Shown: piece by piece, positions 1,611 to 60,836 of the stretch | Numbering within the stretch: the first letter of the stretch is position 1 | Layout: every line of letters begins with the position of its first letter | Virus record (IMG/VR): IMGVR_UViG_2061766007_001347 | Length of the DNA stretch: 64,000 bases | Source: an uncultured virus (IMG/VR IMGVR_UViG_2061766007_001347) | Lineage: Duplodnaviria; Heunggongvirae; Uroviricota; Caudoviricetes | Reading direction: 5' to 3' (one strand) | Made by a program: the position numbers and the translations under genes | Notes under the pieces: model-generated | The model's database searches: none | What the model saw: the letters and a program-made list of their open reading frames with translations, nothing else | Told to the model about the DNA's origin: nothing

Positions 1611-1702
1611 ATTGGAAGGACCAGTTCCCTCCAATCTATGAGTACCTTATAAGCTTAGTTTGAGACTATGTAAAATAAAATCACCGAGTAATTCGGTGAT
1701 TT
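1611..1702 (-). promoter_or_regulatory. Type-A promoter + 5' leader hairpin, with upstream terminator-like inverted repeat
   Basis: Minus strand: GGTGATT box, TTTACA-N17-TATAAG, hairpin, then SD of ORF 1360-1590. Confidence 0.8.
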
Positions 1703-2636
1703 CGTTAAATTTTTGAAGTTGTCTATGAGTGTGCTTAGTTTTCAATATGATCCTTGCTTTTTGGTAAAGTGCTTACAAGATCGTCTAATGAATTACCCAT
1801 CCATAAGTGATAAGAGCTCATAAAGTCTTTCACTTTATTTGTAAGATTCTGAACAGTAGCTGAATCTATCTTAGATGCTGCAGAAAAGTTCTCTACATAG
1901 ATCAGCAAAGCGTTCAGCAAATCATCCAGTCTTCCATCACACTGTTCATGCAATTCTAAAATTGAATCTACGGCTTCTTTAGTAGACTTCTTCATTTGAG
2001 CACCTCTTAGTCAACGTGATTTCAAGAAGCTCATCTATTGCTTTCTTAGTTTTAGCTTTCATAGTCTTCTTCCAATGCATCTCTTAAGTCAGCACAGAAC
2101 TCATTTATGCAGAACAAAAGATTGTCTTCATCTACATTGCTCATTGGTCTGTTGCAGTAAACTTCAGACCAATCAGTAACTTCGCCATTTTCAGTTGCTG
2201 GGAAGATCATGCATTCATTTCCATACAGTGGCAGATCGGCAAGATCTGCGTAGTACCATTCTCCATCTTTTTCGAATAACGCTGAAATAGCTTTGCAGTG
2301 TCTTCCTGGCTTCTGTTCTAAGATCTTAATTTCCATGATTAAACCTCACTATCTATCCATGAATGTTCTTGTTTATGATTTCAACTAATTCGTCTACACC
2401 CTCAAGTGCTTCTCTGAAATCAGCTAGTGCTTTTTCGCTAACTCCATTTGAGAATGTTGCGTCAGTCATGATAGTTCTCAAATGAGCAGCATCTTTTTCC
2501 ATTCTGTGTGCGATCCCCTTCTTTTTCTTGTTGAGCTCTTCAATAAGAAAGTCAATATCTCCAATGTCTCTATAGTGAGAATTAAGAGATTCAGAAATAT
2601 GGTTTGCAAGTTCAATCATACTAGTGAGGTTCATAG

Positions 2637-3062
2637 CTAGTCTCCCAATTTCTGATCATCTTCGTCAGTTAAATGATGCGTGAGATCTATCTTGTTCGAG
2701 TCTTTACATACATAATCGATCAGATCATTATATGTAGCTACTTTATGGCAAAGATCCCATTCATACACGAAGTAAAGATCGCTGCCTCTAATCACGTAGG
2801 TGAATTCTACATCACCGTGAAGATTATTGTGGCTATTAAGATTAAACTTACTTTCGTCCTCATACCCATCATCGTTAGCAAGTTCTCCAATAAGAATTTC
2901 ATACACAGACATATCTTTAATGAGGCAGCTCATACCAATGGAGTAAACCAAATAGTTTCGAAGTTCTTCACCTACGCCTGAAAGATAGCCATCCCAGTGA
3001 TGATAAAACTGATGCGCCTTGTTGTCAGGTGTAACAAAAATAATGTTTGAACGTGTACTCAT
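2637..3062 (-). CDS. Conserved hypothetical phage protein (MSTRS...YxHxDGYxxxVG type)
   Basis: Motif recalled from many phage hypotheticals. Confidence 0.65.
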   Translation of the reverse strand: MSTRSNIIFVTPDNKAHQFYHHWDGYLSGVGEELRNYLVYSIGMSCLIKDMSVYEILIGELANDDGYEDESKFNLNSHNNLHGDVEFTYVIRGSDLYFVYEWDLCHKVATYNDLIDYVCKDSNKIDLTHHLTDEDDQKLGD

Positions 3063-3756
3063 AATTTAGTTCTCCTCATGCGAAACTTCAAAGTCTTTAA
3101 ACCACTCATCAAGACTAAGTAAAATACCACCAACTAAAACATTGCCTTCAAAGCGAACTTCTTTGTTCCAAAAAGGCTTAGCGTCTGACCCCATTCTTAT
3201 GGGCTTCTCATCATAGTTCATGTCTATCTTAATATCATATTCAACTTCAAGATCGAGTGATCTCATAAGAAATTCAAACATCTCTGTATAGTCCAGATCA
3301 TAGTTTGCAGCCCAAGCATCAATAAGATCTACATACTCATTGGTCATCGCCTCTTCTATGTCATCGTTGTCTATCCCGCAACCACCAAAGTATGACGATA
3401 GAAATTCTCGTAAAGTTGAATTCTCATATTGAGATTCAAGCTCTTCACGAACGCATCTATTTGCAAAGTCCTGATTAAGCATTTTCTAAAGCTCCTTTTG
3501 TTTATGTTTAGTGACTAGAGCAATGTCCAGTAAGATACGCAATAACATGGAAGTCTGTGAGTTCAATAACATATGCCCACAAACCGCAGTCTGAAGTTTC
3601 GACTGCATTTTCATACGCCTTGCTTCTATCCATGAAGCCCATGAAATCCAGTGTTGTGCTTGACTCTGGGCTAACTACACAATAATTAGCACCAGCTCTT
3701 TTCATCTTCATGAGTCTATCGTCGTTAATGAATGGATTCGTCATTTTAAGTTCTCC

Positions 3757-3939
3757 TTATAATTCAATGATTACGTCGCCAAACGGATCAATTTCTACGT
3801 TCTTTTTGCTGATGCTATATTCTATATAGTCATCTCCATCGCTCTTAGTAAGAATGCTAGTAATATCTGGAGCATGTAGAACAACTTCTTTGTGTGGATC
3901 CGCTTCTTTGAGAACTTCTATAAATTCAGCAACTGTCAT
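3757..3939 (-). CDS. MTVxELIExL small acidic protein family member
   Basis: MTVAEFIEVLKEADP; SD GGAG; first gene after a repeat promoter. Confidence 0.8.
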   Translation of the reverse strand: MTVAEFIEVLKEADPHKEVVLHAPDITSILTKSDGDDYIEYSISKKNVEIDPFGDVIIEL

Positions 3940-3956
3940 GGCTTTCTCCTATTAAA

Positions 3957-4052
3957 AGCTTGATGAACCCATTTCATCTAGCTTATGAGAGTCTTATAAA
4001 ACTAAGCAGAATTTGTGTAAATTAAAATCACCGAGTAATTCGGTGATTTTAA
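3957..4052 (-). promoter_or_regulatory. Type-A promoter + leader hairpin
   Basis: Same layout as 1611-1702. Confidence 0.75.
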
Positions 4053-4054
4053 TC

Positions 4055-4405
4055 TTAACCCCAAATCCATTCGCCACGTTTGATCTGCTTGATTTCGCCA
4101 TCGCTGATCTTCAGTTCAACGATCTGGCCAGCGTATTTGGCAACCATCTTTTTAACGCGGGCGATTTGTTTCACCGTCAGGAATCCTTTTTCGAGATACC
4201 ATTTGGCGAGTCCTGACCCCTTCTTTGCGTCCTGCGGTTTAAATCCGACGCCATTGCGATATTTGACGTCTTCATGGAGTTTCTCATCTTCAACTTGCTT
4301 GCCATATATAAAGGTTAAAGCGTGGATCGCGGTGGAGTCCTTGACCTCGATCTGGTTGCGAAGCTTGCTGATGATTTCCTGTTTGCTGCTGAATTTGACT
4401 GCCAT
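4055..4405 (-). CDS. Conserved phage protein; paralogue of 54258-54608 and 28647-29012
   Basis: Shared Q..DE...NGVGF...DA...KYAGQ motif. Confidence 0.85.
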   Translation of the reverse strand: MAVKFSSKQEIISKLRNQIEVKDSTAIHALTFIYGKQVEDEKLHEDVKYRNGVGFKPQDAKKGSGLAKWYLEKGFLTVKQIARVKKMVAKYAGQIVELKISDGEIKQIKRGEWIWG

Positions 4406-4425
4406 GATGTTTTCTCCTTGAGGTT

Positions 4426-4519
4426 ATTGGGTGGAACCATTCCATCCAATCTATGAGTACTATATAAGTCTAAACTCAGCTCATGTAAAATAAAATCACC
4501 GCATTACACGGTGATTTTA
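4426..4519 (-). promoter_or_regulatory. Type-A promoter + leader hairpin
   Basis: GGAACCATTCC apex and GTAAAATAAAATCACC box on + strand. Confidence 0.8.
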
Positions 4520-5640
4520 GTTAAACATTTGTGAAAAGCTACAGAAGTCTTATTAGACCTATCAATCGTCGTAATTGAATTTTTCTTTAAGCCATGTACG
4601 AGCATTCTTTTCAAGAAGCTTATCTGTTGATTCAACCATCTCTCTAAAAGAAGAGAATGTTTTATCACCAAGAATCTCACTAAGAATGTCTTCAGCTTCA
4701 CTGCAATATGAGCTAAGTCTTTCTAAGTGATCATGAACAACGCCAACTACTATAGAGGTATCAGTGAGCATCATCAGCTGTTCTTTATCCATCTTTAATC
4801 TCCTTGAGTGTGACTACTAAAAGTAGTTCTTAATGAAAGAAATGATCTTGTTTTCGTCAAATATGCAATCACCATTTTTATTTGTAAGAACGGTGATTCC
4901 CTTTTTGTAATTGCCATTGCAGTGCCATTCAAGGCTACCAGCGTTGTTGCTCTCAAAAAGGTCGAGGTATAGAACTATGCCAGTATTATCTAACTGAGAC
5001 CAGACATATTTACCACCACGATCCATAGCATATTTATGCCCAATAGCTTTGTTGATCGTGTTGATGATTTCTCCACCGTAGTAGTAAGTGTCATGTTCAT
5101 AGGCTCTCATGTCTACTTCTCCTTGTTGATGTCACTAATTTTAATGATCCGTGTTTCAATCTTAAATCTACTTACGTTCATTGCCCACAACTGAATGTTG
5201 GAAATTATTTTGCCGTAAGTAGAAGCTGCCCAAGCATGAATCCAAAATCTGTATGCCCTATAAGGCTTCCACTCATCTGAGTTAGTTCTCTTTACTTCAA
5301 CGATGTATTTCATATTAGCTCCTATAAGACTGGGTCTAATCCCAGTCTTACTATTAAATGTGAGCGATATCCTCAGCGCATTTGGTAACTTTACTATCAT
5401 CATCTAAAGTGTAGCCTTCCCACTTGGTTATCCAAGTGGTGAACAGCATATCTGTTAACCAGCTCTCACTGAGACATTGATTAACCTCCATAATAGCATT
5501 CAATGAAACTTCAGCATCGTGAAGTGTATCAAATGTAGAAGTAAAGCTGCCGTTGGAGTTTGAAGCTCTGACGATGTACTGGGTGATCATAGTGGATCTC
5601 CTATGAGAGATTGAATGGTGTTAACCATTCAATTGAAGAA

Positions 5641-5716
5641 GATTGAAAGGAACCATTCCCTTCAATCTATAAGAGCCTTATAAATCTACTTTAAGTCGGT
5701 GTAAACAAAAATCACC
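5641..5716 (-). promoter_or_regulatory. Type-A promoter + leader hairpin
   Basis: GATTGAAAGGAACCATTCCCTTCAATC...GTAAACAAAAATCACC. Confidence 0.8.
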
Positions 5717-6260: not shown

Positions 6261-6287
6261 CCCTCCGTTTCAAATTAGCATTTAAGT

Positions 6288-6358
6288 TCTAAGTAGAACC
6301 ACTCTACTTAGATTATGCTATTTAAAGCAAAACTAGACTTTCGTAAACAAAAATCACC
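6288..6358 (-). promoter_or_regulatory. Type-A promoter + leader hairpin (variant stem)
   Basis: TCTAAGTAGA-ACCAC-TCTACTTAGA perfect stem; GTAAACAAAAATCACC. Confidence 0.75.
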
Positions 6359-9337: not shown

Positions 9338-9357
9338 TATACGTCTCCTTGAAGTAG

Positions 9358-9420
9358 TGAATGGAACCATTCCATTCATAAAAGCCTTCTATCATAAGTT
9401 TGTAGAGACGTAAACAAAAA
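9358..9420 (-). promoter_or_regulatory. Type-A promoter + leader hairpin
   Basis: TGAATGGAACCATTCCATTCA...GTAAACAAAAA. Confidence 0.7.
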
Positions 9421-47877: not shown

Positions 47878-47883
47878 AATATG

Positions 47884-50177: not shown

Positions 50178-50654
50178 TTACGCCATCTTCATGGCTTTAT
50201 AGACTTTGTGTGCATCACAGGCACGAATCTCATTGTCATAGTTGTCATAGTCAGACATATAGTCGAGTGCAACCTCACATTTAGCAGTACATTTAATTCC
50301 GCGGGTCGGATAATCTTTTGCATTTTCACGAACAACCGCTTGAATCTTTTTGGCGAAATAATCTTTAATGCGGTCAACATCCATTCTTAAATCACAGAGG
50401 AAACCATTCGTATAACCCCATGCGTTGCGACCAGTTCCATAATGTTTGCTATACTCTTTGCTTATCACGAGACAGACATTTCCGTCAATCATTTCAGCAT
50501 CGGCAAACGGCCAATACCGTTCGGCTTTACGGCTGTTTTCCCACATACCATCTGACAACTGACCAAGAGTGCTTTTGAGAACATTCAGACTAGCGGAATC
50601 AGTGAGACCAGTATTGATGACGACGATGTTTTCTTTGTTTGCAAGCTTTGTCAT
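50178..50654 (-). CDS. Hypothetical phage protein
   Basis: GQLSDGMWEN; start revised to ATG after SD. Confidence 0.75.
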   Translation of the reverse strand: MTKLANKENIVVINTGLTDSASLNVLKSTLGQLSDGMWENSRKAERYWPFADAEMIDGNVCLVISKEYSKHYGTGRNAWGYTNGFLCDLRMDVDRIKDYFAKKIQAVVRENAKDYPTRGIKCTAKCEVALDYMSDYDNYDNEIRACDAHKVYKAMKMA

Positions 50655-50676
50655 GTCAGTATCTCCTATGAAGTTC

Positions 50677-51045
50677 AATGAATGGATCCATTCCATTCAT
50701 TTTATGAGTTATTTATAACACACATTGTGGAATCTGTCAATAAGAATTTTCTTATTTTTGACAGATTTTCAAGGAACCATGAATGGAATCCATTTGTTCC
50801 ATTCATTTTATGAGTATATAGTATCATAGTTCAGTTATTCCGTCAATAGAAAAATTCAGAAAAATAGCTAAAAATTTTTTAGAAAATAGGCAATTTTCTT
50901 GTTGACAGACTAATTTTTCTGTGGTATAATTGCACAGTTTAGACCAGATTTTATCCTAGATTGCACAGCTAATTCCGCCCAATTTATTATATCACAGATT
51001 TTTAGCCTTGTAAATAGAAAAATAAAGAAAAAGTGTATCAGATTT
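50677..51045 (-). promoter_or_regulatory. Composite block: tandem hairpin promoters + divergent promoter + ATTGCACAG motifs
   Basis: Hairpins at ~50677 and ~50779; TTGACA..TATAAT on + at ~50902-50930. Confidence 0.7.
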
Positions 51046-52351
51046 AATCAGAAAAACTGACATANNNNNNNNNNNNNNNNNNNNNNNNNNNNNNNNNNNN
51101 NNNNNNNNNNNNNNNNNNNNNNNNNNNNNNNNNNNNNNNNNNNNNNNNNNNNNTTATATTATTTGGCAACTTCAATAATGTATGACCTATTTTATGACTT
51201 CTAAATGATGTACTAATTACACTGAAATCTGCAATATCATGGAGTGACATTTCAATAGCATCTATAATTGCTAATTTATCAACTTTGTTTATTTCCGCCC
51301 AATAATTTATAAGACCATACAAATCGACATCTTCAACAAGACAACTCATTATATGTTCAGGCTTGCAAACAATATATTGTGTAAATATATATTCAACAGT
51401 TGTGTCGTGCTCAAATCGTTTGAGATTCTCTAAATACATATTAAGATTCCCTTCCTATGTCACCAATGATTGCAAGCAAAAGAAATGCAACTATACATAT
51501 AACAAAGAACAGAATAATCCTCATTCTAATCTCCGTTATGCTTTTCTAATCGTTTCTTTTCGATGAATGTGTAATGCACAAAGTATGCTATCTTTGTTAG
51601 AATTATTCCTATACCAATTCCGAGCAATAGATATATCATGGTGTATCGCTCCTTAAAGTTTTTCGGAGATCTATAAGCCACATAGCATACCGCCAATTGC
51701 ACTTTGCAGGGAATCCTTGACGGTTGTCTATATTACAATAATCCATATATGGCTTTGATGTGTAGACAGGATAGAGGCTTCCATCTTTCAACCTTATCAC
51801 CTTATATAAATATACAGAGTTTGACCTCCTAAAGCATCTTTTTGACAAACCATTTAGAAGTCTGTTAATACGGTCCGCTGCTAATGAATATCTGTGTTTG
51901 AATGTAAGTTTCTTCATGTCTAATTCCTTTTTACTTTTCCTGATAAAGGTGATACGTGAATGACAGTACCATCAATGGATGTGAAATATGATTCTACTGA
52001 TTTGCATTTATATTCAGCAGCAAGTGACCACAATTGTTTAATAGCAGAAGACTCATTCTTTTCACTTCCAATTACAGTACTGAAATTCCCATCGTCGTTC
52101 ATATATGTAAATTTCCATGTTACAGAATGAGTCTTCATAATCTATTCCTTTCTGGTTGATTTAATTATCCGTGTAACTGTAAGGACTTCTTTTACTTCGT
52201 ACCAATCTCGTGAATCTCTATGAGCCTCCATCTCTGCAGCAGCTGCAAACAGTGCAACACCGTAATCGTCATAAGTCTCAATATGTGTACCACCACCTTT
52301 GAAATGATAGGTAACAATGTATTCTGTTTTGGATGTTGAATCACTCATTGG

Positions 52352-52531
52352 CTAATCCTCACATCTATTTCCATGCTCGTCCCATATAGAGAGGCACACA
52401 GCATCATCTTCAAACCGAACACAGTCTTTATGTAAACCTGTCCACCCCTCAGCATCTTCAAGATAAACCTCAAGGTTCTCATCAAAAGTATCGAGTAAAT
52501 GAATAAGTTCTTTAACTGTTAAGATATTCAT
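52352..52531 (-). CDS. MTVxELIExL family member (not in ORF track)
   Basis: Hand translation MNILTVKELIHLLDTFDE. Confidence 0.75.
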   Translation of the reverse strand: MNILTVKELIHLLDTFDENLEVYLEDAEGWTGLHKDCVRFEDDAVCLSIWDEHGNRCED

Positions 52532-52840
52532 ACAGCGTTCTCCACTGGACAGTATTTATCTGACATAATATGTAGTTCATAGACATCATCATAAACGTCA
52601 GAAATGTCAAAGCAGTCATTTTCATCAGGTTTAAGTGAAGCAATCTCATCAATAAGCTCATCAATGAGAGTAGCAATACGGATTCCTTTTCGTTTATTTT
52701 CGGACATGGTTCAACTCCATTTGTCAACTGCAAAGAAAAGAGCAACAAGAACTGCAACAAGAATAACTATTGCAACAATTTGTGCTACCATGTTTATCAC
52801 TCCTTAACAACTCTATAAATTGTTAGCGGTCTGTGCAATC

Positions 52841-53500
52841 CTACTTGAGTGAAATGATTCCTGTCTTGCCATTGAACTTGTATTTAACATTTGCTTTCAA
52901 CTTTGAATCGTATTTGTAAATTTCAACAGTGTCAATACAAGATGCAGTAGCACGTTTGAATCCACGGTTACTATTGATCCGTTTCATAATTCCATCAATA
53001 AATGCAGCGGGCAATTTTTCCTTTGCTACTAATCTGCCATAATTGAAAGGATTGGCAACAGGTTGATTCATCATACGGTCAAGTGCTAAATTTACAAGAC
53101 GGGTTGCTTCTTCAAGATCATCAGAGAATATCTTATTGCTATTTCTTTCTTTAAACATGTAGAACAACTTCTCATAAACGACCTCACCATAATCAGGCCA
53201 TAGAGTCTGTTCTTTGCTTATCTTACCATCATATCCTACACCTGCTAAATACTTTTTAGCACGAGGACCCATTACATCAACCTTCTGCCACCAATCTTTT
53301 CCAACCTTTACAGATTCTTCAACCATCCAAATGCGGATTATATGTGAATTATCTCCAGGTTTAATCATATCAACATGGGTCTTTGTCTTCGAGTAGGATC
53401 CGTTCTCTGTAAAAGGAGAAACAATATATCCCTTACTCATGAAATCCATGATGGCGGCATTGAATTGACGCGCAACTTCACTAGCGGTTACAACTGTCAT
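52841..53500 (-). CDS. Hypothetical; paralogue of 49384-50061
   Basis: Shared motifs. Confidence 0.8.
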   Translation of the reverse strand: MTVVTASEVARQFNAAIMDFMSKGYIVSPFTENGSYSKTKTHVDMIKPGDNSHIIRIWMVEESVKVGKDWWQKVDVMGPRAKKYLAGVGYDGKISKEQTLWPDYGEVVYEKLFYMFKERNSNKIFSDDLEEATRLVNLALDRMMNQPVANPFNYGRLVAKEKLPAAFIDGIMKRINSNRGFKRATASCIDTVEIYKYDSKLKANVKYKFNGKTGIISLK

Positions 53501-53549
53501 GTTACTTTCTCCTTATGTATTGAAAGGACCCATTCCTATTCAAGTATAA

Positions 53550-53879
53550 TTAGTTCCAATGCAAATCTGCAAACTTTCTTCCCCATGCAGCCTTTGCATT
53601 TTCTAGTATCCGTTTTCCTTTTTCAGTGATTGACCACTTCTGTGAATATCTGTCATAACTTGCAATACCTTTGCGGTGCATTGCAGAAAACGTAGTTGAC
53701 ATGTGACCTCTCCACATATCGGGATCATAGGCATTCTTCACATGCCACACCTTTTCAAGTATTGTACGTTTTGAAGTAGGGCCTTCTCTATCAAGCAGAG
53801 ACAGAACTGACAAATAACGTGTAGGTTTACCTGATTTATGTAACGGACAAACGAATGAGTATGAATCCCATGCTGGCAT
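53550..53879 (-). CDS. Putative winged-helix protein
   Basis: VLSLLDREGP.SK...WSITEKG. Confidence 0.6.
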   Translation of the reverse strand: MPAWDSYSFVCPLHKSGKPTRYLSVLSLLDREGPTSKRTILEKVWHVKNAYDPDMWRGHMSTTFSAMHRKGIASYDRYSQKWSITEKGKRILENAKAAWGRKFADLHWN

Positions 53880-53900
53880 AATTTAATCCTTTATGTGTTT

Positions 53901-53965
53901 AATGAATGAATCCATTTCCATTCATTTTATGAGTATGTTATATCACGGTTCACGTTTTCTGTCAA
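53901..53965 (-). promoter_or_regulatory. Type-B promoter + leader hairpin
   Basis: Consensus layout. Confidence 0.75.
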
Positions 53966-54183
53966 TAAGAATTTTTGCTTATTGACATTTTGCAGTTTCC
54001 AAATGAATATACATCCATTCAATTGAGTTGTGAAAAGATTTCTTCATATCCTCAATAAAAGCAATTGCTTGATCTACCGTCGGAAATGGAGCAATCATTG
54101 GAGATTCTGTGTACGCTCTTGTGCCTTGTTTGAACATATATTCCACAACACAGTTCATAGTAATACCTCTTTTCGTTATCTCC

Positions 54184-54246
54184 ATGAATGGATCCATTCC
54201 ATTCATTTTATGGTTATGTTATATCACAGAACGGAATTGTTGTCAA
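54184..54246 (-). promoter_or_regulatory. Type-B promoter + leader hairpin
   Basis: Consensus layout. Confidence 0.8.
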
Positions 54247-54257
54247 TAGGAATTTTA

Positions 54258-54608
54258 CTATCCCCAAATCCATGAACCACGTTCAAGTTGACGAATCTCA
54301 CCTTCACAGATTTTCGCTTCGACAACCTGTCCTGCATATTTAGCAACCATCCGTTTCACAGCAGTTAACTGTTTTGTAGTGAAGAATCCTTTGTCCTGGT
54401 ACCATTTTGCAAAGGATGAACCTAATTTTGCATCCTGCGGTTTAAACCCTACACCGTTGTGATACTTAACAGTTTCCTGACGTTGCTCATCGGCAACCTG
54501 ACGATCGTACACAAACATAAGGGTATGAATTGCAGTGGAGTCTTTGTCAGCAATCTGTTTACGAAGTTTTTCGACGATTTCTTTTTTGCTTGTGAACTGA
54601 ATTGCCAT
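54258..54608 (-). CDS. Close homologue of 4055-4405
   Basis: Both 116 aa; NGVGFKPQDAK identical. Confidence 0.85.
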   Translation of the reverse strand: MAIQFTSKKEIVEKLRKQIADKDSTAIHTLMFVYDRQVADEQRQETVKYHNGVGFKPQDAKLGSSFAKWYQDKGFFTTKQLTAVKRMVAKYAGQVVEAKICEGEIRQLERGSWIWG

Positions 54609-54627
54609 GTCAAATCTCCTTATCCTT

Positions 54628-54945
54628 AATGAAGGGATCTATTCCATTCATTTTATGAGTTATTTATATCACAGATTAAATCTGTTGTCAATAAGAATTT
54701 TCTTATTTTTGACAGATTTTTCAAAGAGGATTGAATGGATCCATTGTTTCCATTCAATTTATGAGTATATTGTAACACAGTTTTTGGCTGCTGTAAATAG
54801 AAAAATGCTGAATTTTTGACGAAAATTGTATCAGATTGTATCAGAAATTTATCAGATTTCTGATACAATTTTCTGAAATTTTTCTATTGACAGATGGTTA
54901 AAAATGAGTTATAATTATAACAGGTGGACTGTGCAATCTTTTGAG
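54628..54945 (-). promoter_or_regulatory. Composite block: tandem hairpin promoters, TGTATCAGA motifs, divergent promoter
   Basis: Hairpins at ~54628 and ~54730; TTGACA..TATAAT on + at ~54887-54915. Confidence 0.7.
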
Positions 54946-54952
54946 ACAACTA

Positions 54953-54992
54953 AACCCATTATAATTATTTTATAGAATAATTATAATGGGTT
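54953..54992 (-). terminator. Hairpin closing the tRNA operon
   Basis: AACCCATTATAATTATT...AATAATTATAATGGGTT. Confidence 0.65.
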
Positions 54993-55002
54993 AAATTATA
55001 TA

Positions 55003-55076
55003 TTCCACCTGCACGATTTGAACGTACATTGTAGGAGTCAGAATCCTATGTCCTAACCAATTGAACGAAGACGGAT
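55003..55076 (-). tRNA. tRNA-Gln(CUG)
   Basis: Cloverleaf; TAGGA-TT-CTG-AC-TCCTA. Confidence 0.85.
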
Positions 55077-55094
55077 TAAATACAATCGTATAAA

Positions 55095-55186
55095 TGGACG
55101 CGGCAGGACTCGAACCTGCTATTCCGAATTCAAATGTGATTTGCATTCCTCGCGAGAGGTGTTTTACCTCGATAAACTACACGCCC
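55095..55186 (-). ncRNA. Atypical tRNA-like RNA with Ala-type G3.U70 acceptor and non-canonical anticodon region
   Basis: GGGCGTG/CGCGTCC-A, D and T arms; two short hairpins replace the anticodon/variable arms. Confidence 0.7.
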
Positions 55187-55192
55187 ATAAGA

Positions 55193-55263
55193 TGTGCCCA
55201 CAAGGACTTGAACCTTGATAGACGGATTAAAAGTCCGCTATTCTACCTTTGAATTATAGGCAC
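55193..55263 (-). tRNA. tRNA-Lys(UUU)
   Basis: GCGGA-CT-TTT-AA-TCCGT. Confidence 0.9.
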
Positions 55264-55282
55264 ACAAAATGCTCCAAGAAAA

Positions 55283-55356
55283 TAGATGTAGGAGGACTTG
55301 AACCTTCAACCTACGGCTTCGTAGGCCGTTGCTCTATCCAGTTGAGCTATACATCC
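55283..55356 (-). tRNA. tRNA-Arg(ACG)
   Basis: ACGGC-CT-ACG-AA-GCCGT. Confidence 0.92.
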
Positions 55357-55361
55357 ATAAA

Positions 55362-55433
55362 TAGGGAATAACAGATTTGAACTGTTCTTACCACATTATC
55401 AGTGTGGCGTCCTCACCTCTAGACGAATTCCCT
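55362..55433 (-). tRNA. tRNA-Ile(GAU)
   Basis: CCACA-CT-GAT-AA-TGTGG. Confidence 0.85.
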
Positions 55434-55443
55434 ATAATAAATA

Positions 55444-55540
55444 TTTGGCTGCTGGGATTCGAACCCATAACCTCTGATCCCTTAAATTTAAGGTGACTAT
55501 CTCATCAGTGTTCTGTTACCATGTTTTAAACTACAGCCCA
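55444..55540 (-). ncRNA. tRNA-like RNA with a 25-nt expanded anticodon loop
   Basis: CTGAT/ATCAG stem encloses GAGATAGTCACCTTAAATTTAAGGG; T arm TGGG-TTCGAAT-CCCA. Confidence 0.7.
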
Positions 55541-55545
55541 TAAGA

Positions 55546-55619
55546 TGGTAGCGGGTCCGGGAATTGAACCCGGTCTATAAGGTTATGAGCCTTATGTGCT
55601 TCCGTTACACTCACCCGCA
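55546..55619 (-). tRNA. tRNA-Met(CAU) (Met or Ile2 class), CCA encoded
   Basis: TAAGG-CT-CAT-AA-CCTTA; 1:72 mismatch. Confidence 0.85.
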
Positions 55620-55623
55620 ATAA

Positions 55624-55796
55624 AACCATGTGTAGGAATTGAACCTACTCCTTTCATGGCATCTAATATGATTCCTATAATTGTGTTGATCCTGAACTTA
55701 TAGAGAAATGATTCTCTACTCGGGAATTGAACCCGACCAATTATAGGTATTAGTTTATAGCTACATGAATGTTCATTCCAATTGAACTTACATGGT
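55624..55796 (-). ncRNA. Double-headed tRNA-like RNA (outer tRNA + nested circularly permuted tRNA elbow)
   Basis: Two T arms, two D-like arms and two 7-bp acceptor-like stems joined by a long helix. Confidence 0.8.
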
Positions 55797-55799
55797 AAA

Positions 55800-55875
55800 T
55801 AGCAGTGGAGGGATTTGAACCCCCGACCAAGAGTTTATAAGACTCCTGCTCATAACCAGACTGAGCTACACTGCT
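55800..55875 (-). tRNA. tRNA-Ile(UAU)
   Basis: GGAGT-CT-TAT-AA-ACTCT. Confidence 0.88.
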
Positions 55876-55880
55876 ACAAA

Positions 55881-55954
55881 TCTAGGTGGCAAGATTCGAA
55901 CTTGCGACATCCTGGATCCTAACCAGGAACTCTACCAGACTGAGCTACACCTAG
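55881..55954 (-). tRNA. tRNA-Pro(AGG)
   Basis: CCTGG-TT-AGG-AT-CCAGG. Confidence 0.88.
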
Positions 55955-55958
55955 AAAA

Positions 55959-56032
55959 TCTAGACGGGTGGATTTGGACCACCGACCTCCTGAATCCAAA
56001 TCAGGCGCGCTACCAGACTGCGCTACGCCTAG
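55959..56032 (-). tRNA. tRNA-Pro(UGG)
   Basis: CCTGA-TT-TGG-AT-TCAGG. Confidence 0.88.
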
Positions 56033-56037
56033 AAAAT

Positions 56038-56130
56038 AACATAATTCAATTGGCACGGCTCTCACGTACTGCCAAGCTCCTCCATAATTAATACAAATTA
56101 TGTGGTTCCGCCAAGCAATTGAATTATGTT
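56038..56130 (-). ncRNA. Candidate structured RNA between tRNAs
   Basis: Perfect 15-bp closing stem AACATAATTCAATTG/CAATTGAATTATGTT. Confidence 0.55.
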
Positions 56131-56133
56131 AAA

Positions 56134-56205
56134 TACTCCCAGTTGGAATCGAACCAACATCTAGGGTTTAGAAGACCCTTGTTCTATCCTTTGAACTATG
56201 GGAGC
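56134..56205 (-). tRNA. tRNA-Arg(UCU)
   Basis: AGGGT-CT-TCT-AA-ACCCT. Confidence 0.92.
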
Positions 56206-56317
56206 AAAAGACGCAGGTGTTATTTAGATAGCAGTTCTATTTCAACTACAGGGCACACACCTCAAACCTCTTTGTTGGTTAGCCTCGCCAGCATTGCCCG
56301 ATTTGAACGGGACTTAA

Positions 56318-56388
56318 CGGGAAATGAAAGAATCGAACTTTCATACATCGGTTAACAGCCGATTGCTTTACCTTTAAGCTAATTTCCC
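56318..56388 (-). tRNA. tRNA-Asn(GUU)
   Basis: ATCGG-CT-GTT-AA-CCGAT; G discriminator. Confidence 0.9.
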
Positions 56389-56394
56389 AAAAAG

Positions 56395-56573
56395 TGCTCC
56401 AAGAAGGAATCGAACCTCCAACTTCCTGATTACAAATCAGGCGTNNNNNNNNNNTATGAAGAGATGCTTTGATGTTTCCAGTAAAATTTACTGTCAGCTC
56501 TCTGAATGACGTACATTATTCTTTCTTCCATGACAGATGCTCCNNNNNNNNNNACCAATTGAACTATTAGAGC
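56395..56573 (-). tRNA. tRNA-Thr(UGU), split by assembly gaps (halves 56395-56444 and 56554-56573)
   Basis: CCTGA-TT-TGT-AA-TCAGG; acceptor halves on either side of an N-flanked insert. Confidence 0.75.
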
Positions 56574-56577
56574 ATAG

Positions 56578-56650
56578 CATCCTCAACAGGAATTGAACCT
56601 GTGTTGTTTATACCATAGTATAACCGTCCTAACCACTAGACGATAAGGAT
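56578..56650 (-). ncRNA. Glu/Asp-like tRNA body with non-canonical anticodon loop
   Basis: TCGTCTAGTGGTTAGGAC D arm; TTATAC-TATG-GTATAA instead of a 5-bp stem with 7-nt loop. Confidence 0.65.
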
Positions 56651-56661
56651 ATAAAGATAAA

Positions 56662-56733
56662 CGTCCTCGACGAGATTCGAACTCATATTATGTGCGTGAA
56701 AGGCACATGACCTAACCCTTAGTCGACAAGGAC
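56662..56733 (-). tRNA. tRNA-Glu(UUC)
   Basis: TGTGC-CT-TTC-AC-GCACA. Confidence 0.9.
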
Positions 56734-56736
56734 AAA

Positions 56737-56879
56737 ACAAATCATTTCCATTACCATACGCTAGGACTTTTTCAGGCTCTACGTTTGTTACCCTAATCCC
56801 TCCACTCTCTAGCTATGTACACTTGTTAGATCGTTTCAGTCTTTACTCTCACAACTCGCTCTTCGTAGCAATGATTTGT
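56737..56879 (-). ncRNA. Candidate ~143-nt structured RNA between tRNAs
   Basis: 10-bp closing stem ACAAATCATT/AATGATTTGT. Confidence 0.45.
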
Positions 56880-56881
56880 AA

Positions 56882-56958
56882 TGGAAAATGAAAGATTCAA
56901 ACTTTCATCTAACGACCCCAACAAAGGCCGGTTGTTTTATCAGTTAAACTAATTTCCC
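56882..56958 (-). ncRNA. Atypical or pseudo tRNA resembling the tRNA-Asn body, with G3.U70
   Basis: GGGAAAT/ATTTTCC-A; irregular anticodon arm; T loop TTTGAAT. Confidence 0.6.
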
Positions 56959-56962
56959 ATAA

Positions 56963-57046
56963 TGGGCAGGGATGGACTCGAACCACCAATAGCTTTCGCC
57001 GCCTGATTTACAGTCAGGTGTCTTAACCAATTCGACGCACCTGCCC
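56963..57046 (-). tRNA. tRNA-Tyr(GUA)
   Basis: CCTGA-CT-GTA-AA-TCAGG; long variable arm. Confidence 0.92.
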
Positions 57047-57060
57047 AAATCTTTTGGATA

Positions 57061-57133
57061 TGATGAGGAGTGGAGTTGAACCACTGACGCAGAGATTTTC
57101 AGTCTCTCGCTCTACCGACTGAGCTACCCCACC
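57061..57133 (-). tRNA. tRNA-Phe(GAA)
   Basis: AGAGA-CT-GAA-AA-TCTCT. Confidence 0.92.
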
Positions 57134-57150
57134 AAATTGATACTTTCTTT

Positions 57151-57170
57151 TATTCAATTGTCAAAGATGT
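57151..57170 (-). promoter_or_regulatory. boxA-like antitermination signal
   Basis: ACATCTTTGACAATTGAATA in the tRNA operon leader. Confidence 0.5.
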
Positions 57171-57188
57171 TTTCCAATGACAGTAATT

Positions 57189-57217
57189 ATTATACATTGG
57201 AATGTTTTGAATGTCAA
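57189..57217 (-). promoter_or_regulatory. Consensus sigma70 promoter of the tRNA operon
   Basis: TTGACA-N17-TATAAT exact. Confidence 0.9.
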
Positions 57218-57460
57218 CTAAACTTTACACTCTTTTTCCTGAATCACGGAAATTTTGTTGTCTACGCTATTGCATAGACGATCATACATGGAGTTCAAAT
57301 CAAACTTGATGTCCACTACTTTGTCTTTAAGATATTGAATATCGCAAGGTAAAGATTCTGTTTCACACTTTTGAAGATAAGCATCAAGATCTCCTACATA
57401 ATCAATTGCCGATGCTAGATCAAGGACAGAATGTTCAGCCCATTTATTATAATCTACCAT
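57218..57460 (-). CDS. Hypothetical; close homologue of 10406-10591
   Basis: LDLASA.DY.GDLDAYL.KCETESLPCDIQYLKDKV. Confidence 0.8.
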   Translation of the reverse strand: MVDYNKWAEHSVLDLASAIDYVGDLDAYLQKCETESLPCDIQYLKDKVVDIKFDLNSMYDRLCNSVDNKISVIQEKECKV

Positions 57461-57690
57461 GACAACTCTCCTTAATCAACCAATGTTACTTTAACTCGTT
57501 TGATTTTACATTCCTGTCCTTCACTACCAATACCTAGTCTTGTCTTTGCACCTTTTTCAGTAACGAATAAATGTGCTTTGTCGAAACTGTCATATCCGTA
57601 ACATGAAGAGATACTTAAATGCTTCCAGTAAAATTTACCATCAGCTCTCTGAATGACGTACATTATTCTTTCTTCCATGACAGATGCTCC

Positions 57691-57858
57691 TTATCCTACA
57701 CTGATGTAAAACTTACCATGTTCTTCACCGACATCTTTCTTATCAACGTCATACTCAATAAACTCATCAGTATAATACCCAGAGTCAGGAGCGCAAACAG
57801 TAACTTCCATATCAGGGTCTGCTTCCTTAAGAATTTCAATCAATTCTTTTACTGTCAT
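57691..57858 (-). CDS. MTVxELIExL family member (not in ORF track)
   Basis: Hand translation MTVKELIEILKEADPDMEV. Confidence 0.8.
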   Translation of the reverse strand: MTVKELIEILKEADPDMEVTVCAPDSGYYTDEFIEYDVDKKDVGEEHGKFYISVG

Positions 57859-57877
57859 GTCATTTTCTCCCTATGTT

Positions 57878-57942
57878 TAATGAAAGGATCCATTCCATTC
57901 ATTTTATGAGTTATTTATAACACAGATTCAAATGAATGTCAA
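57878..57942 (-). promoter_or_regulatory. Type-B promoter + leader hairpin
   Basis: TTGACA-N17-TATAAA. Confidence 0.75.
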
Positions 57943-57956
57943 CAGGAATTCTCTAT

Positions 57957-58133
57957 TTATTTATCAGAAATGTCAAGAATGACTGTGTGGCCATTTACTT
58001 TAACGTCACACTCATCAAAGTCCTCAATGTCTTTCCAACATGACCCATAGAGATCACCTTTCATAAACCGAACGAGAACCTGTGCTCCAAGATCACATGA
58101 CGATAATTTTTCAATCAGTTCTTCCACTGTCAT
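57957..58133 (-). CDS. MTVxELIExL family member (not in ORF track)
   Basis: Hand translation MTVEELIEKLSSCD. Confidence 0.75.
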   Translation of the reverse strand: MTVEELIEKLSSCDLGAQVLVRFMKGDLYGSCWKDIEDFDECDVKVNGHTVILDISDK

Positions 58134-58156
58134 GACGTTTTCTCCTTTATGGTTTA

Positions 58157-58321
58157 TTACCGATTACCTTTGGAATCCCATTGGGAAATAAGAACATCAC
58201 CATCTTCATCTGTACGAATATATTCTTTCTGTATTCCATTTGGTCCCTCACAATCTTCTGTGTAAACTGTCAGATTCTGATCAAATGTTTTCAAGATTTC
58301 AATCAATTCTTTTACTGTCAT
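58157..58321 (-). CDS. MTVxELIExL family member (not in ORF track)
   Basis: Hand translation MTVKELIEILKTFDQN. Confidence 0.75.
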   Translation of the reverse strand: MTVKELIEILKTFDQNLTVYTEDCEGPNGIQKEYIRTDEDGDVLISQWDSKGNR

Positions 58322-58341
58322 GGTGTATTCTCCATTGATTC

Positions 58342-58890
58342 ATTGAAACGGTCCATCCGTTTCAATTTATGAGTTATTTATAACATAGTTTGTGGAACAT
58401 GTCAACAAGAATTTTCTTATTTTTGACATTTTCCATCAAATTTTCAAAGATTCAATGAATGGATTATCTGTTTCCATTCATTTTATGAGCATATAATAAC
58501 CAATTTTCTATGGTTTGTCAACCAAATTTTTAAGGAATTTTCTGAAATTTCAAAGAATTTCAATGAATGGATCCAGTGTTCCATTCATTATGGCACTATA
58601 ATAACATAGAAAATGGTGGCTGTCAAATAAATTTTTAAGAAAATTAGTGTCAAAATGTATCAGATTTTGACGAAAGTGTGTCTTGGATTGCACAGATTCT
58701 GCCTCCCCAGCATAATTTTATCACAGATTTTAGTCTTTGTCAACGGAAAAATTCAAGAAAATTAGCTTATTTTTACCAAAAATTTAGGTGAAATTTTACT
58801 AAATTTTCTATTGACAGACTGAATTTTCTGTGATATAATACACATTTTCAGCAGAAAAAGTCCTAGATTGCACAGCTTCTGATACATTTT
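58342..58890 (-). promoter_or_regulatory. Composite block: three tandem hairpin promoters + divergent promoter
   Basis: Hairpins at ~58342, 58454 and 58562; TTGACA..TATAAT on + at ~58811-58839. Confidence 0.7.
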
Positions 58891-58941
58891 NNNNNNNNNN
58901 CATCAATTCTTTTACAGTCATAGCGTTTTCTCCTTGTAGTC

Positions 58942-59002
58942 TAATCAAGGAACCATTCCTTGATTATGTGGTAACTATATTACAGTTTACTGCACGTGTA
59001 AA
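58942..59002 (-). promoter_or_regulatory. Promoter + leader hairpin
   Basis: AATCAAGGA-ACCAT-TCCTTGATT. Confidence 0.75.
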
Positions 59003-59232
59003 TAGTTTATTTCATATTTTATGATGACTTCAATAGCTGCCTATACTTACAAAGTTAAAAATAAGCGTTTCTCTATTCTCTTTGTCATAGGTAAACTTCA
59101 TGAGTACTCCTGGCTCTAATAACCATGTTCCACCATCAGCACTATATTCTTCAAATTCAAATTCTATTTCCAAATCAGAATCAAATTCTGACAGCTTATC
59201 AATCAGCTCTTTTACTTTCATACCTTGTTCTC

Positions 59233-59397
59233 CTATGTTGGCCATCCACACATAGGCTTCTTAACAGATAAGCATAGATACTCAGAATCATCATAGTTCT
59301 TGTCAAGATAGTATTCCCAGCCATGAACATTGACATAGATCTCTTTATCTTTATCGTCAATATTGTTCAGAAGCTCTATTAGCTCATTCACTGTCAT
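59233..59397 (-). CDS. MTVxELIExL family member (not in ORF track)
   Basis: Hand translation MTVNELIELLNNID. Confidence 0.75.
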   Translation of the reverse strand: MTVNELIELLNNIDDKDKEIYVNVHGWEYYLDKNYDDSEYLCLSVKKPMCGWPT

Positions 59398-59727
59398 GAT
59401 GAAGTCTCCTTCCTAATTATGGGCTAGCGACCATTATCAGCGTCTTTCTGTATAAGATAATCAACAACTTGCTGAATCGTATCAAATTTTTCTACATAAT
59501 ACTCGTCTTCAACTTCATAGCCACCATCTTCATTTGGCGTAATTGTAAAGTTGTCATAACAGTAGTCACAGTAAAATGAAACTTCTACATCATTGCTGTA
59601 TGCTTTGACTTCATAAGCTGAGAGATCGTGCGTTGAAAGTTTGTACGCTTTAAGTAATGAGTCAAGATGCGTAGCAAGATTAGTTAGCTGTTCTTTTTCT
59701 ACCATAATAAAGTCTCCTTCTAAGTTT

Positions 59728-59802
59728 ATTGAATGGAACCATTCCATTCAATTTATGAGATTCTTATAAACCGCTATGAAGTGATTGTAAACAAAAATCA
59801 CC
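59728..59802 (-). promoter_or_regulatory. Type-A promoter + leader hairpin
   Basis: ATTGAATGGA-ACCAT-TCCATTCAAT. Confidence 0.8.
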
Positions 59803-60098
59803 AGTCTTAAGCTACAAATTATAGACATCAGACACAGGGTCAGATAAGAATCGCCAAGGACCCCAGATACCCTTCCTATCAGTTACACGACGCTGAAATT
59901 CCATGATTGGAGCATTGTCGTAGTCTATGAAGTTGTATTTGCCATCAGCCTCAAGCAAGCAGTCGAACCAAGCTTTGTTAAAATCATGATCAAATTTATC
60001 ATTGCCAGGAAATACTTCAGACTCATATTCAACGTCAATTACATTATCATAATCATCTAATTGAACTAGTCTGAACTGCTGCATATCTGTATCTCCTA

Positions 60099-60338
60099 TT
60101 AGCTACGACACTTCCACCAACAAGAACGTTCCCAATCACGACGATCAGGCATACACCCTGACTTAATCACTAACGCGTTATACTTAGCGTCAACTTCAAA
60201 GGTGTCTTCATTTACATCATCAATGTCTATATCTTCTGAGTAAGCATCACAATCAAAGGCAGTAGCAGGAACCGCATTAACAACTTCCAAATTGCCATCG
60301 AAGTTCTTAAGAAGTTCAATCAATTCCTTAACTGTCAT
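60099..60338 (-). CDS. MTVxELIExL family member
   Basis: MTVKELIELLKNFD. Confidence 0.8.
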   Translation of the reverse strand: MTVKELIELLKNFDGNLEVVNAVPATAFDCDAYSEDIDIDDVNEDTFEVDAKYNALVIKSGCMPDRRDWERSCWWKCRS

Positions 60339-60356
60339 CGTTCTTTCTCCTGTAAA

Positions 60357-60551
60357 TTAGTAACCGTAACAAATGTAAGTAATGTCAATGACTAAATTTC
60401 CATCTTTATCTAAAGACCAGACGCATTCATTATCTTGGTCTTCATCATTAAGATCGGTATAATAGTCATCCCGGTCACTTCCAGCATGAACGTAGACGTT
60501 AGTGGTCTGATTGTATTTCTGAAGCTTCTTGATTAAATCAGCAATTGTCAT
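60357..60551 (-). CDS. MTVxELIExL family member
   Basis: MTIADLIKKLQKYN. Confidence 0.75.
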   Translation of the reverse strand: MTIADLIKKLQKYNQTTNVYVHAGSDRDDYYTDLNDEDQDNECVWSLDKDGNLVIDITYICYGY

Positions 60552-60583
60552 GATGAAATCTCCTTTCAGTTTGTCGTAAAAGA

Positions 60584-60742
60584 CTAACCAACGTAAAGCG
60601 TAAAACTCTTTGAGTCTATCTCAACATCATCTTTAGAAATTTCATCATATGTTGAATCGAATCCACCGTCCGGTGCTTTAACAACAAACGTCAAGTCAGA
60701 ATCAACGTTCTTCAAAATTTCAATCAATTCTTTCACTGTCAT
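60584..60742 (-). CDS. MTVxELIExL family member
   Basis: MTVKELIEILKNVDS; start revised. Confidence 0.8.
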   Translation of the reverse strand: MTVKELIEILKNVDSDLTFVVKAPDGGFDSTYDEISKDDVEIDSKSFTLYVG

Positions 60743-60763
60743 GATATTTTCTCCTTTTGGTTT

Positions 60764-60836
60764 ATTGAATGGATCCATTCCATCCAATCTAGAGTCCTTA
60801 TAAGCTAAACTGAGAAATATGTAAACAAAAATCACC
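60764..60836 (-). promoter_or_regulatory. Type-A promoter + leader hairpin
   Basis: Consensus layout. Confidence 0.8.

Follow-up and report, generated by a model that had tools for sequence, protein, structure and literature searches.

The 64-kb stretch of DNA analysed here (the window; IMG/VR record IMGVR_UViG_2061766007_001347, an uncultured virus of the Caudoviricetes) carries about 45 promoter units in which a hairpin with a covarying stem and a conserved GGA-AUGGN-UCC apex stands at a nearly fixed distance behind the promoter. The hairpin family is a genuine, strongly non-random and structurally selected element, which accompanies protein-coding messages and recurs in related phage genomes. 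The reading favoured here, tentatively and from sequence, is a post-transcriptional one. The hairpin would form a 5' leader that shields early messenger RNAs (mRNAs) from 5'-end-dependent decay, and its apex would be the handle for a putative factor.

The hairpin family in the window and in related genomes

At all 45 sites listed in the initial annotation, the minus strand reads a -35 hexamer, a -10 hexamer, a conserved start region (mostly TCATAA or TCATAG), a hairpin, a Shine-Dalgarno (SD) sequence and an ATG, in this order. A covariance model (R1) was built from an alignment of 25 regular copies (A1), and the search with it was run with the filters off. R1 recovers 41 of the 45 copies at E<=1, and 39 also at E<=0.01. 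Of the four missed copies, three (26620, 28570 and 50087) form variant-apex hairpins of -17.8, -17.0 and -10.9 kcal/mol, respectively, and the fourth (49118) is partly hidden by an N run. Every minus-strand match scores far above its plus-strand mirror. Two minus-strand matches of R1, at 47801 and 47485, were rejected as not being family members. The minus strand has 23 copies of GGAATGGNTCC and the plus strand none, with 0.02 expected from Markov shuffles. Folds of seven diverse copies have energies of -11.4 to -17.5 kcal/mol and z-scores of -3.0 to -5.4. The hairpin is shared by two promoter dialects, as the initial annotation had proposed, with 29 TTTACA-like and 15 TTGACA-like units by the -35 hexamer.

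Four related viral contigs were retrieved through the hairpin motif, G001 (35.5 kb), G002 (204 kb, 95% complete), G003 (91 kb) and G004 (156 kb), which together with the window make up the five genomes compared below. Among metagenome relatives, R1 gave 67 matches in 46 loci, several of them pairs ~100 nt apart, in tandem as in the window.

Position relative to the promoter and the gene

Of the strong promoters on the minus strand, 35 of 40 have a family hairpin within the next 12 nt downstream, compared with none of 11 on the plus strand. Across the five genomes, 83 of 85 hairpins have an upstream promoter. In 63 of these 83 the first stem base comes 10 nt after the end of the -10 hexamer, and in 81 it comes 7-11 nt after it. 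The first stem pair would lie at about +5 of the predicted transcript, and a start ~7 nt past the -10 hexamer would leave 3-4 unpaired bases ahead of the stem. Downstream, an SD sequence and an open reading frame (ORF) of at least 30 codons in the same direction follow 78 of the 85 hairpins, with a median of 20 nt between the stem end and the start codon (14-27 nt in 61 of 78). The strand of the hairpin tracks that of the genes in G002, where the matches lie on the minus strand in the region of minus-strand genes (113-137 kb) and on the plus strand in that of plus-strand genes (137-165 kb). All G002 matches are within 113-176 kb, with none in the structural and replication block at 0-113 kb.

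Five strong promoters are without the hairpin. The one at 57188 heads a transfer RNA (tRNA) cluster, those at 58714 and 50985 precede a second repeated motif, CTGTGCAAT, the one at 44347 precedes an unrelated hairpin and the one at 22470 lies inside a gene. Because hairpin-less strong promoters head the tRNA cluster or a non-coding motif, the hairpin accompanies protein-coding messages and not promoters as such. The AUG of the loop was also considered as the start of a mini-ORF and rejected, since by eye it has no SD sequence, a variable frame and a length from 3 codons up.

The tRNA cluster at 55.0-57.1 kb (55003-57134, minus strand) comprises 15 genes by ARAGORN and 16 by Rfam. Its promoter (~57188-57220) is a perfect TTGACA-17-TATAAT without a leader hairpin. 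At 54916, a consensus promoter on the plus strand points into the cluster in the antisense direction. The motif CTGTGCAAT(C) has nine copies, at 47770(+), 54929(+), 58695(-), 50968(-), 50937(-), 49209(+), 52831(+), 58875(-) and 44763(+). Several of them, on both strands, lie 12-25 nt past consensus promoters without the leader hairpin; the convergent promoters 50985(-) and 50931(+) are an example of such a pair. These sites may give rise to small non-coding or antisense RNAs, or may act as a DNA site.

Covariation of the stem and conservation of the apex

The stems differ widely yet stay paired. In A1, whose copies were chosen beforehand for at least four flanking pairs, 96.0% of the cells are paired, 7 of the 10 pairs have changed on both sides, and none of 500 shuffles matches the covariation score. 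In the alignment of 90 model matches from the five genomes, which was fitted to R1 itself and contains five opposite-strand duplicates, 96.4% of the cells are paired and all 10 pairs show compensatory changes, whereas pairing in slid controls drops to 19-61%. With the duplicates removed, the 84 distinct copies have 770 Watson-Crick, 38 G.U, 6 A.C and 26 other pairs. The excess of G.U over A.C pairs on the sense strand has a binomial p of about 1e-6, calculated over copies that are paralogs and not independent, and this asymmetry is expected if the element is selected on the transcribed strand. Together with the covariation and with the strand relationship in G002, it supports the earlier claim that selection acts on the RNA structure of the transcribed strand.

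The apex behaves differently from the stem. The information content of 39 strictly colinear units from the five genomes is 1.81 bits in the -35 hexamer, 0.40 in the spacer, 1.43 in the -10 hexamer and 1.05 in the start region. In the hairpin it is 1.1-1.4 bits in the outer stem, 1.75 in GGA, 1.43 in the loop and 1.66 in TCC, and it falls to 0.36 in the 3' flank. At ~1.7 bits the apex matches the -35 hexamer (1.8 bits) in conservation. Homogenisation alone would have kept the near-random promoter spacer too. Thus the apex is conserved independently, apparently under selection of its own, which fits a sequence-specific reader. The loops of the 84 distinct copies are AUGGA (23), AUGGU (20), AAAUGGAU (5) and rarer forms, a few of them without AUGG, and the asymmetric loop is always in the sense orientation. 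Comparison of 21 reciprocal-best pairs of downstream genes between genomes showed that the stems are often wholly different with the apex kept. For example, the proteins downstream of the window hairpin at 29383 and of its G004 counterpart (L127:15894) are 70% identical, and the two hairpins differ in the stem and have the same apex.

The 45 units are listed below. Coordinates cover the promoter and the hairpin, hairpin coordinates are the R1 span for copies matched by R1, and the basis is an R1 match and a promoter match unless noted.

1607-1674 (-): TTTACA-17-TATAAG cassette, hairpin 1607-1641
3954-4021 (-): TTTACA-17-TATAAG cassette, hairpin 3954-3988, variant apex
4422-4489 (-): TTTACA-17-TATATA cassette, hairpin 4422-4456
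5638-5705 (-): TTTACA-17-TATAAG cassette, hairpin 5638-5672, followed by a second, palindromic hairpin at 5604-5637
6284-6347 (-): weaker-promoter cassette, hairpin 6284-6318, stem TCTAAGT, apex AGAGUGGUUCU; also fold
9352-9414 (-): TTTACG-17-TAGAAG cassette, hairpin 9352-9386
12373-12438 (-): TTTACA-17-TATAAG cassette, hairpin 12373-12407, stem TTAAGT; also fold
14561-14626 (-): TTTACA-17-TATAAA cassette, hairpin 14561-14595, stem AATCAA; also fold
16087-16154 (-): cassette, hairpin 16087-16121
16745-16810 (-): cassette, hairpin 16745-16779
19013-19077 (-): cassette, hairpin 19013-19047
19463-19576 (-): cassette with upstream terminator, hairpin 19463-19497, missing in a related strain; also joint 19462->19577 in run X3
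20902-20970 (-): cassette, hairpin 20902-20936
21354-21422 (-): cassette, hairpin 21354-21388
24664-24698 (-): hairpin alone, no convincing upstream promoter (best score 8); R1 match
24983-25048 (-): cassette, hairpin 24983-25017, stem TTAAGT, loop AUAGG
26616-26686 (-): cassette, 12-bp hairpin 26620-26648, apex GGGAAUAGGUUCC; fold and promoter, missed by R1
27935-28002 (-): cassette, hairpin 27935-27969
28566-28630 (-): cassette, hairpin 28570-28592, stem GAGCGG, variant apex; fold and promoter, missed by R1
29051-29117 (-): cassette, hairpin 29051-29085, stem AGCTAA; also fold
29383-29450 (-): cassette, hairpin 29383-29417
29698-29765 (-): cassette, hairpin 29698-29733; weak R1 match (E 0.53) and promoter
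41361-41428 (-): TTGACT-16-TATAAT cassette, hairpin 41361-41395; weak R1 match (E 0.27) and promoter
41606-41674 (-): TTGACA-17-TATTAT cassette, hairpin 41606-41641
43109-43176 (-): TTGACA-17-TATAAC cassette, hairpin 43109-43143
44092-44159 (-): cassette, hairpin 44092-44126, downstream unit of a tandem
44193-44260 (-): cassette, hairpin 44193-44227, upstream unit of a tandem, no ORF between
47427-47494 (-): cassette, hairpin 47427-47461, downstream in tandem
47537-47604 (-): cassette, hairpin 47537-47571, upstream in tandem
49115-49170 (-): cassette, N-masked at 49135-49162, TTGACA and 3' arm visible; sequence by eye
50083-50151 (-): cassette, hairpin 50087-50110, apex GGGAAUUGGAUUCC; fold and promoter, missed by R1
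50673-50740 (-): cassette, hairpin 50673-50707, downstream in tandem; also fold
50774-50846 (-): cassette, hairpin 50774-50813, longer loop, upstream in tandem
53516-53573 (-): hairpin 53516-53549, weak promoter abutting the stem, predicted start within the stem; also fold
53897-53965 (-): cassette, hairpin 53897-53932
54179-54246 (-): cassette, hairpin 54179-54213
54624-54691 (-): cassette, hairpin 54624-54658, downstream in tandem
54726-54797 (-): cassette, hairpin 54726-54764, longer loop, upstream in tandem
57875-57942 (-): cassette, hairpin 57875-57909
58338-58405 (-): cassette, hairpin 58338-58372, apex ACGGAUGGACCGU, third of three tandem units
58450-58521 (-): cassette, hairpin 58450-58488, loop without AUGG
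58558-58626 (-): cassette, hairpin 58558-58595
58938-59002 (-): cassette, hairpin 58938-58972, stem AATCAA
59724-59791 (-): cassette, hairpin 59724-59758, top R1 score (50.9 bits); also fold
60760-60825 (-): cassette, hairpin 60760-60794

The phage lineage

The window has a G+C content of 36%, and its genes are nearly all on the minus strand. G002 has the T4-type families of the capsid (gp23), portal (gp20), tail tube (gp19), gp25 and baseplate, together with a UvsX-like RecA, NrdD and a family-A polymerase. The Pfam scan of this genome, which covered 248 of its 257 ORFs (the other nine cross locus borders), found no sigma factor and no RNA polymerase family. With its T4-type genes and neither of these families in G002, the lineage is an uncultured T4-type jumbo myovirus, which must use the host RNA polymerase. 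The G002 terminase and polymerase have 25-28% identity to any cultured phage (best terminase 28%, polymerase ~26%), too distant for the host to be named from them. No record near-identical to the window was found in the phage collection. The stretch is present in DNA runs labelled bovine gut or gut metagenome, and no RNA run containing it was found. All 30 bins of an 18-kb piece of it are covered by contigs of four runs from four studies, with differences of a few percent.

A pattern scan for the motif in the contigs of genome bins gave no matches, and hence no hint of the host. TRTG and TGn extended -10 elements are typical of Gram-positive promoters, and the TTGACA-type (type-B) promoters have TGn in 12 of 13 cases and TRTG in 9 of 13. 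However, a family match in G002 to an Rz1-like LysC spanin suggests a diderm host. These clues conflict.

Comparison with known elements

A search of the window against Rfam 15 at gathering thresholds matched 16 tRNAs and nothing else, in agreement with the initial annotation, which did not recognise the hairpin as a described motif. A permissive search of 57500-61000, which holds eight copies, gave two chance-level matches (E>=4), neither of them on a hairpin. An intrinsic terminator was rejected as an identity for the hairpin, as at least 5 T in the 9 nt past the stem are present in just 3 of 85 copies and the usual 3' flank is AAUAAAC. N4-type promoters consist of a DNA hairpin upstream of the start site that is read by the virion RNA polymerase. 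Here the hairpin is downstream of a sigma-70-type -10 hexamer and thus not an N4-type promoter hairpin, and the Pfam scan of G002 gave no phage RNA polymerase family. In the excerpts of the main texts compared (PMC2839356, PMC4122927, PMC8948821, PMC11512511, PMC10914365, PMC3606486), no description was found of a family of promoter-proximal transcribed hairpins with a conserved loop.

The closest known counterparts are the promoter-early stem-loops (PeSLs), a match missed by the initial annotation. PeSLs are composite promoter/stem-loop cassettes before ORFans of T4-type phages, whose stem-loops are G/C-rich terminators at variable positions that mediate gene shuffling (PMC2839356, PMC4122927). 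Like PeSLs, the window units combine a repeated strong sigma-70-like promoter (44 near-consensus promoters in the window) with a stem-loop before small ORFans in the plastic early region of a T4-like myovirus. G-T pairs are tolerated in the stems of both. PeSLs are gained and lost between close relatives, and one cassette of the window is an indel between strains. However, the PeSL stem-loop may precede the promoter, lie within it, overlap it or come shortly ahead of the start, whereas the window hairpin is fixed past the predicted start. Further, PeSL stems are G/C-rich terminators, whereas the window hairpin has A/U-rich covarying stems, the GGA-AUGGN-UCC apex and, apart from the three exceptions, no U tract; the terminator role falls to another hairpin, TCACCG..CGGTGATTTT, located upstream. 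The units are of the PeSL kind in cassette logic and type of phage, with an added hairpin, predicted to be transcribed, of fixed position and conserved loop.

Many genomic copies with a fixed loop and free complementary stems are also a feature of the intergenic hairpins (X)nCUUCGG(Y)n of T4 (Tuerk et al. 1988, as cited in PMC8948821). However, the window loop is not a UUCG-type tetraloop, and its hairpins are fixed after promoters, whereas those of T4 are mostly in other intergenic places.

The hairpin as a proposed 5' leader

In the favoured reading, the units would be modular early-gene cassettes composed of an optional intrinsic terminator, a host sigma-70-type promoter, the leader hairpin, a ribosome-binding site and a small gene, usually an ORFan. 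The host RNA polymerase would start at the A of the conserved CATAA, ~7 nt past the -10 hexamer, so that the mRNA would begin with 3-4 unpaired bases followed by a hairpin of 10-11 bp. The hairpin end would lie ~20 nt short of the start codon, immediately outside the ribosome-binding site. The stem may act as a post-transcriptional, 5'-terminal stabiliser that slows 5'-end-dependent decay by hindering RppH and RNase E/G, or RNase J, depending on the host. The A-UGG-N loop on its invariant GGA/UCC platform would be the shared handle for one putative trans-acting factor, whose binding would place the entire early regulon under coordinated control.

This reading has precedents. Stem-loops at the 5' terminus stabilise mRNAs in E. 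coli and B. subtilis, RppH requires unpaired 5' nucleotides (PMC3997798), and T4 gene 32 mRNA is stabilised by a 5' hairpin (PMC8948821). Like the predicted leader, the stabilising stem-loops of E. coli ompA and papA, B. subtilis aprE and T4 gene 32 lie a few nucleotides from the mRNA 5' end and upstream of the ribosome-binding site without occluding it (PMC3997798, PMC8948821). However, the known stabilisers are single-gene features without a shared loop, whereas here one family with an invariant apex is found on ~45 messages, at a place in them that is predicted.

The probability given to this reading stays short of even, and several points weigh against it. The RppH of B. subtilis needs at least two unpaired bases and prefers three or more (PMC3997798). 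A leader of 3-4 unpaired nucleotides may therefore still admit the enzyme, and protection is not guaranteed. A plain stabiliser needs no conserved loop, and the reading must consequently invoke the putative factor. In the Pfam scan of 148 window ORFs and of G002, no RNA-binding, RegA, RegB, CsrA, S1 or sigma family was found, most of the scanned ORFs being without any Pfam family. The 5'-terminal place of the hairpin is predicted from promoter geometry, and two hairpins, at 24664 and 53516, lack a well-placed promoter. The strands differ little in fold energy, the sense fold being the more stable one in 46 copies and the antisense fold in 35, with 4 ties (mean difference 1.25 kcal/mol; Wilcoxon p=2e-4, sign test p=0.27). 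Finally, the copies are paralogs that have been homogenised within each genome, G004 for example preferring one stem with a GGAAAAUGGAUUCC apex, and the number of independent compensatory events is therefore far below the cell counts.

Alternative explanations

An action of the nascent hairpin on RNA polymerase, which it would bind on leaving the exit channel, alone as in HK022 put or with a phage N-like protein as in lambda boxB, would make transcription resistant to pausing or termination at the many terminators of the early region. The boxB loop consensus is a GNRA-like pentaloop (GAAAA or GACAA) on a short stem with a boxA partner, and put RNA is a two-stem structure. These elements resemble the window hairpin in being small nascent-RNA hairpins near early promoters, boxB sharing even the pentaloop, and put RNA shows that a phage RNA can act in cis (PMC9378689). 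The position directly past the promoter and a conserved loop that points to a specific contact would fit such an action, and the intrinsic terminators between type-A units (nine full copies) would provide a substrate for regulated read-through. However, there are 45 copies here and two per genome in the known systems, the loops are AUGGA, AUGGU and their variants rather than GNRA-like, boxA-like words are not associated with the hairpins, and one hairpin of ~30 nt stands in place of the two stems of put. A general modifier would be expected at the promoters of the tRNA cluster and the putative non-coding RNAs as well, where the hairpin is absent, and the tight distance to the start codon favours the mRNA over the polymerase as the target. 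The explanation is therefore judged unlikely, and the boxB-like antitermination suggested in the initial annotation is not upheld.

A translational operator, at which a RegA-like phage repressor or a CsrA-like host repressor binds the loop and perhaps the nearby SD sequence and silences the early genes jointly at a switch, is doubtful to a similar degree. The conserved loop, the hairpin end beside the SD sequence and the restriction to protein-coding units are consistent with it. T4 is known to silence early mRNAs with RegA. Its RegB is used for the same purpose (PMC3014915). However, the GGA that CsrA requires is present in just 38 of the 84 distinct loops and absent from 46, which speaks against a CsrA site as the general identity of the apex, another suggestion of the initial annotation. 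The families of these repressors are among those not found in the window or G002, and the SD sequence and the start codon lie outside the hairpin.

In a further reading, the hairpin would be a virus-wide 5' leader tag whose apex is read by a dedicated phage protein, marking early mRNAs as self and sparing them from decay or giving them priority at the ribosome. This is improbable; if true, the tag would correspond, in a bacterial virus, to the 5' leader that coronavirus mRNAs have in common.

An element working at the DNA level, either as a recombination hot spot for cassette shuffling, the role proposed for PeSLs, or as an operator bound by a dimeric repressor of early promoters, with RNA folding incidental, is very unlikely. 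The core GGA-N5-TCC is indeed a dyad, PeSL stem-loops are recombination sites (PMC2839356), and strains differ in having or lacking the whole unit 19463-19576. Hairpin classes differ between orthologous genes and are shared by unrelated genes within one genome, indicating cassette exchange or homogenisation. However, an operator would keep its letters, and here all 10 pairs change on both sides. The G.U excess is confined to the sense strand, the asymmetric loop always follows the direction of transcription, and the promoter spacer of the same cassette has not been homogenised.

A self-mark, by which a phage-induced shut-off of host mRNA or translation spares messages with the leader hairpin or a phage factor favours them, has one conserved apex on ~45 messages from two promoter dialects, its retention in five related phage genomes and its absence from non-coding transcripts on its side, but is hardly probable, as no nuclease or shut-off gene was identified by Pfam in the window and G002 and the confinement of the hairpin to the early region would leave later phage messages unprotected.

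If the hairpin works as predicted by the post-transcriptional reading, one small RNA element would govern the fate of most early messages across an uncultured rumen jumbo-phage lineage. It would be a compact, portable 5' leader of ~30 nt with a clear logic, pairing being needed in the stem and sequence in the loop, and its more than 80 variants form a natural allelic series for mutational design. The PeSL idea would be widened from promoter and terminator to promoter and leader, suggesting that large phages equip their early-gene cassettes with signals for both transcription and post-transcriptional control. Should a dedicated reader of the loop exist, it is probably one of the many ORFans.

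Cassette architecture and presence or absence between strains

The type-A units have a conserved upstream terminator, TCACCG..CGGTGATTTT, in nine full copies, and its 3' half extends into the -35 hexamer. There are 23 minus-strand copies and one plus-strand copy of GTGATTYT-N2-4-TTTAC, and because of this bias the 3' half of the terminator may double as an upstream promoter element. The copies of the TCACCG-loop-CGGTGATTTT terminator are as follows, all of them standing directly upstream of type-A promoters.

1677-1699 (-): terminator
4024-4046 (-): terminator
4492-4514 (-): terminator
12441-12463 (-): terminator
19533-19556 (-): terminator
21425-21446 (-): terminator
25051-25073 (-): terminator
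29120-29142 (-): terminator
29768-29790 (-): terminator

Among the type-B units (TTGACA, TG-extended -10), tandem arrangements without an intervening ORF are frequent. In a contig of run X3, 11 letters take the place of window positions 19463-19576, exactly one terminator-promoter-hairpin unit of 114 bp. This is the one clean case of such an indel; other joints that end at hairpins have sides of 24-32 letters and may be repeat artefacts.

In some units a second small hairpin lies between the leader hairpin and the SD sequence on the minus strand (5604-5637, ~28540-28556 and ~29030-29046). The first is a perfect palindrome, ATTGAATGGTTAACACCATTCAAT, and the other two, in neighbouring units, read AAGAACC-loop-GGTTCT. 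Ten N runs of 10-89 bases at 41144-58900 mask parts of the type-B region, and most of the 49118 hairpin lies under one of them.

Other genes of the window and G002

Pfam families in the window include RtcB, an RNA ligase, metallophosphoesterases, a dCMP deaminase and two amidoligases; 128 more window ORFs in the scan are nearly all without a family. The RNA-repair-like set on the minus strand (10616-11836, 17579-18760, 13168-14085, 39979-40539 and 26024-26593) consists of RtcB, an Rnl-type RNA ligase with a PHA02142 OB domain, two metallophosphoesterases and an HD-domain protein, which suggests a counter to host tRNA or RNA nucleases. The two amidoligases (PF12224) are paralogs at 26702-27958 and 47884-49092 on the minus strand. 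G002 also has two amidoligases, which adjoin a class-II glutamine amidotransferase. Its NrdD contains an intein-like insert and an IS605 OrfB/TnpB-like gene adjoins a serine resolvase; it further encodes at least 10 ankyrin-repeat proteins, SHMT, ThyX, HU and thioredoxin.

A paralogous family of small proteins in the window has at least 10 members of ~55-80 residues, most of which begin with MTVKELIEILK...DP..EV. Members are encoded on the minus strand at 3757-3939, 15234-15410, 43222-43395, 43905-44075, 52352-52531, 57691-57858, 58157-58321, 60099-60338, 60584-60835 and 16506-16820. None of them has a Pfam family, and they mostly have one cassette each.

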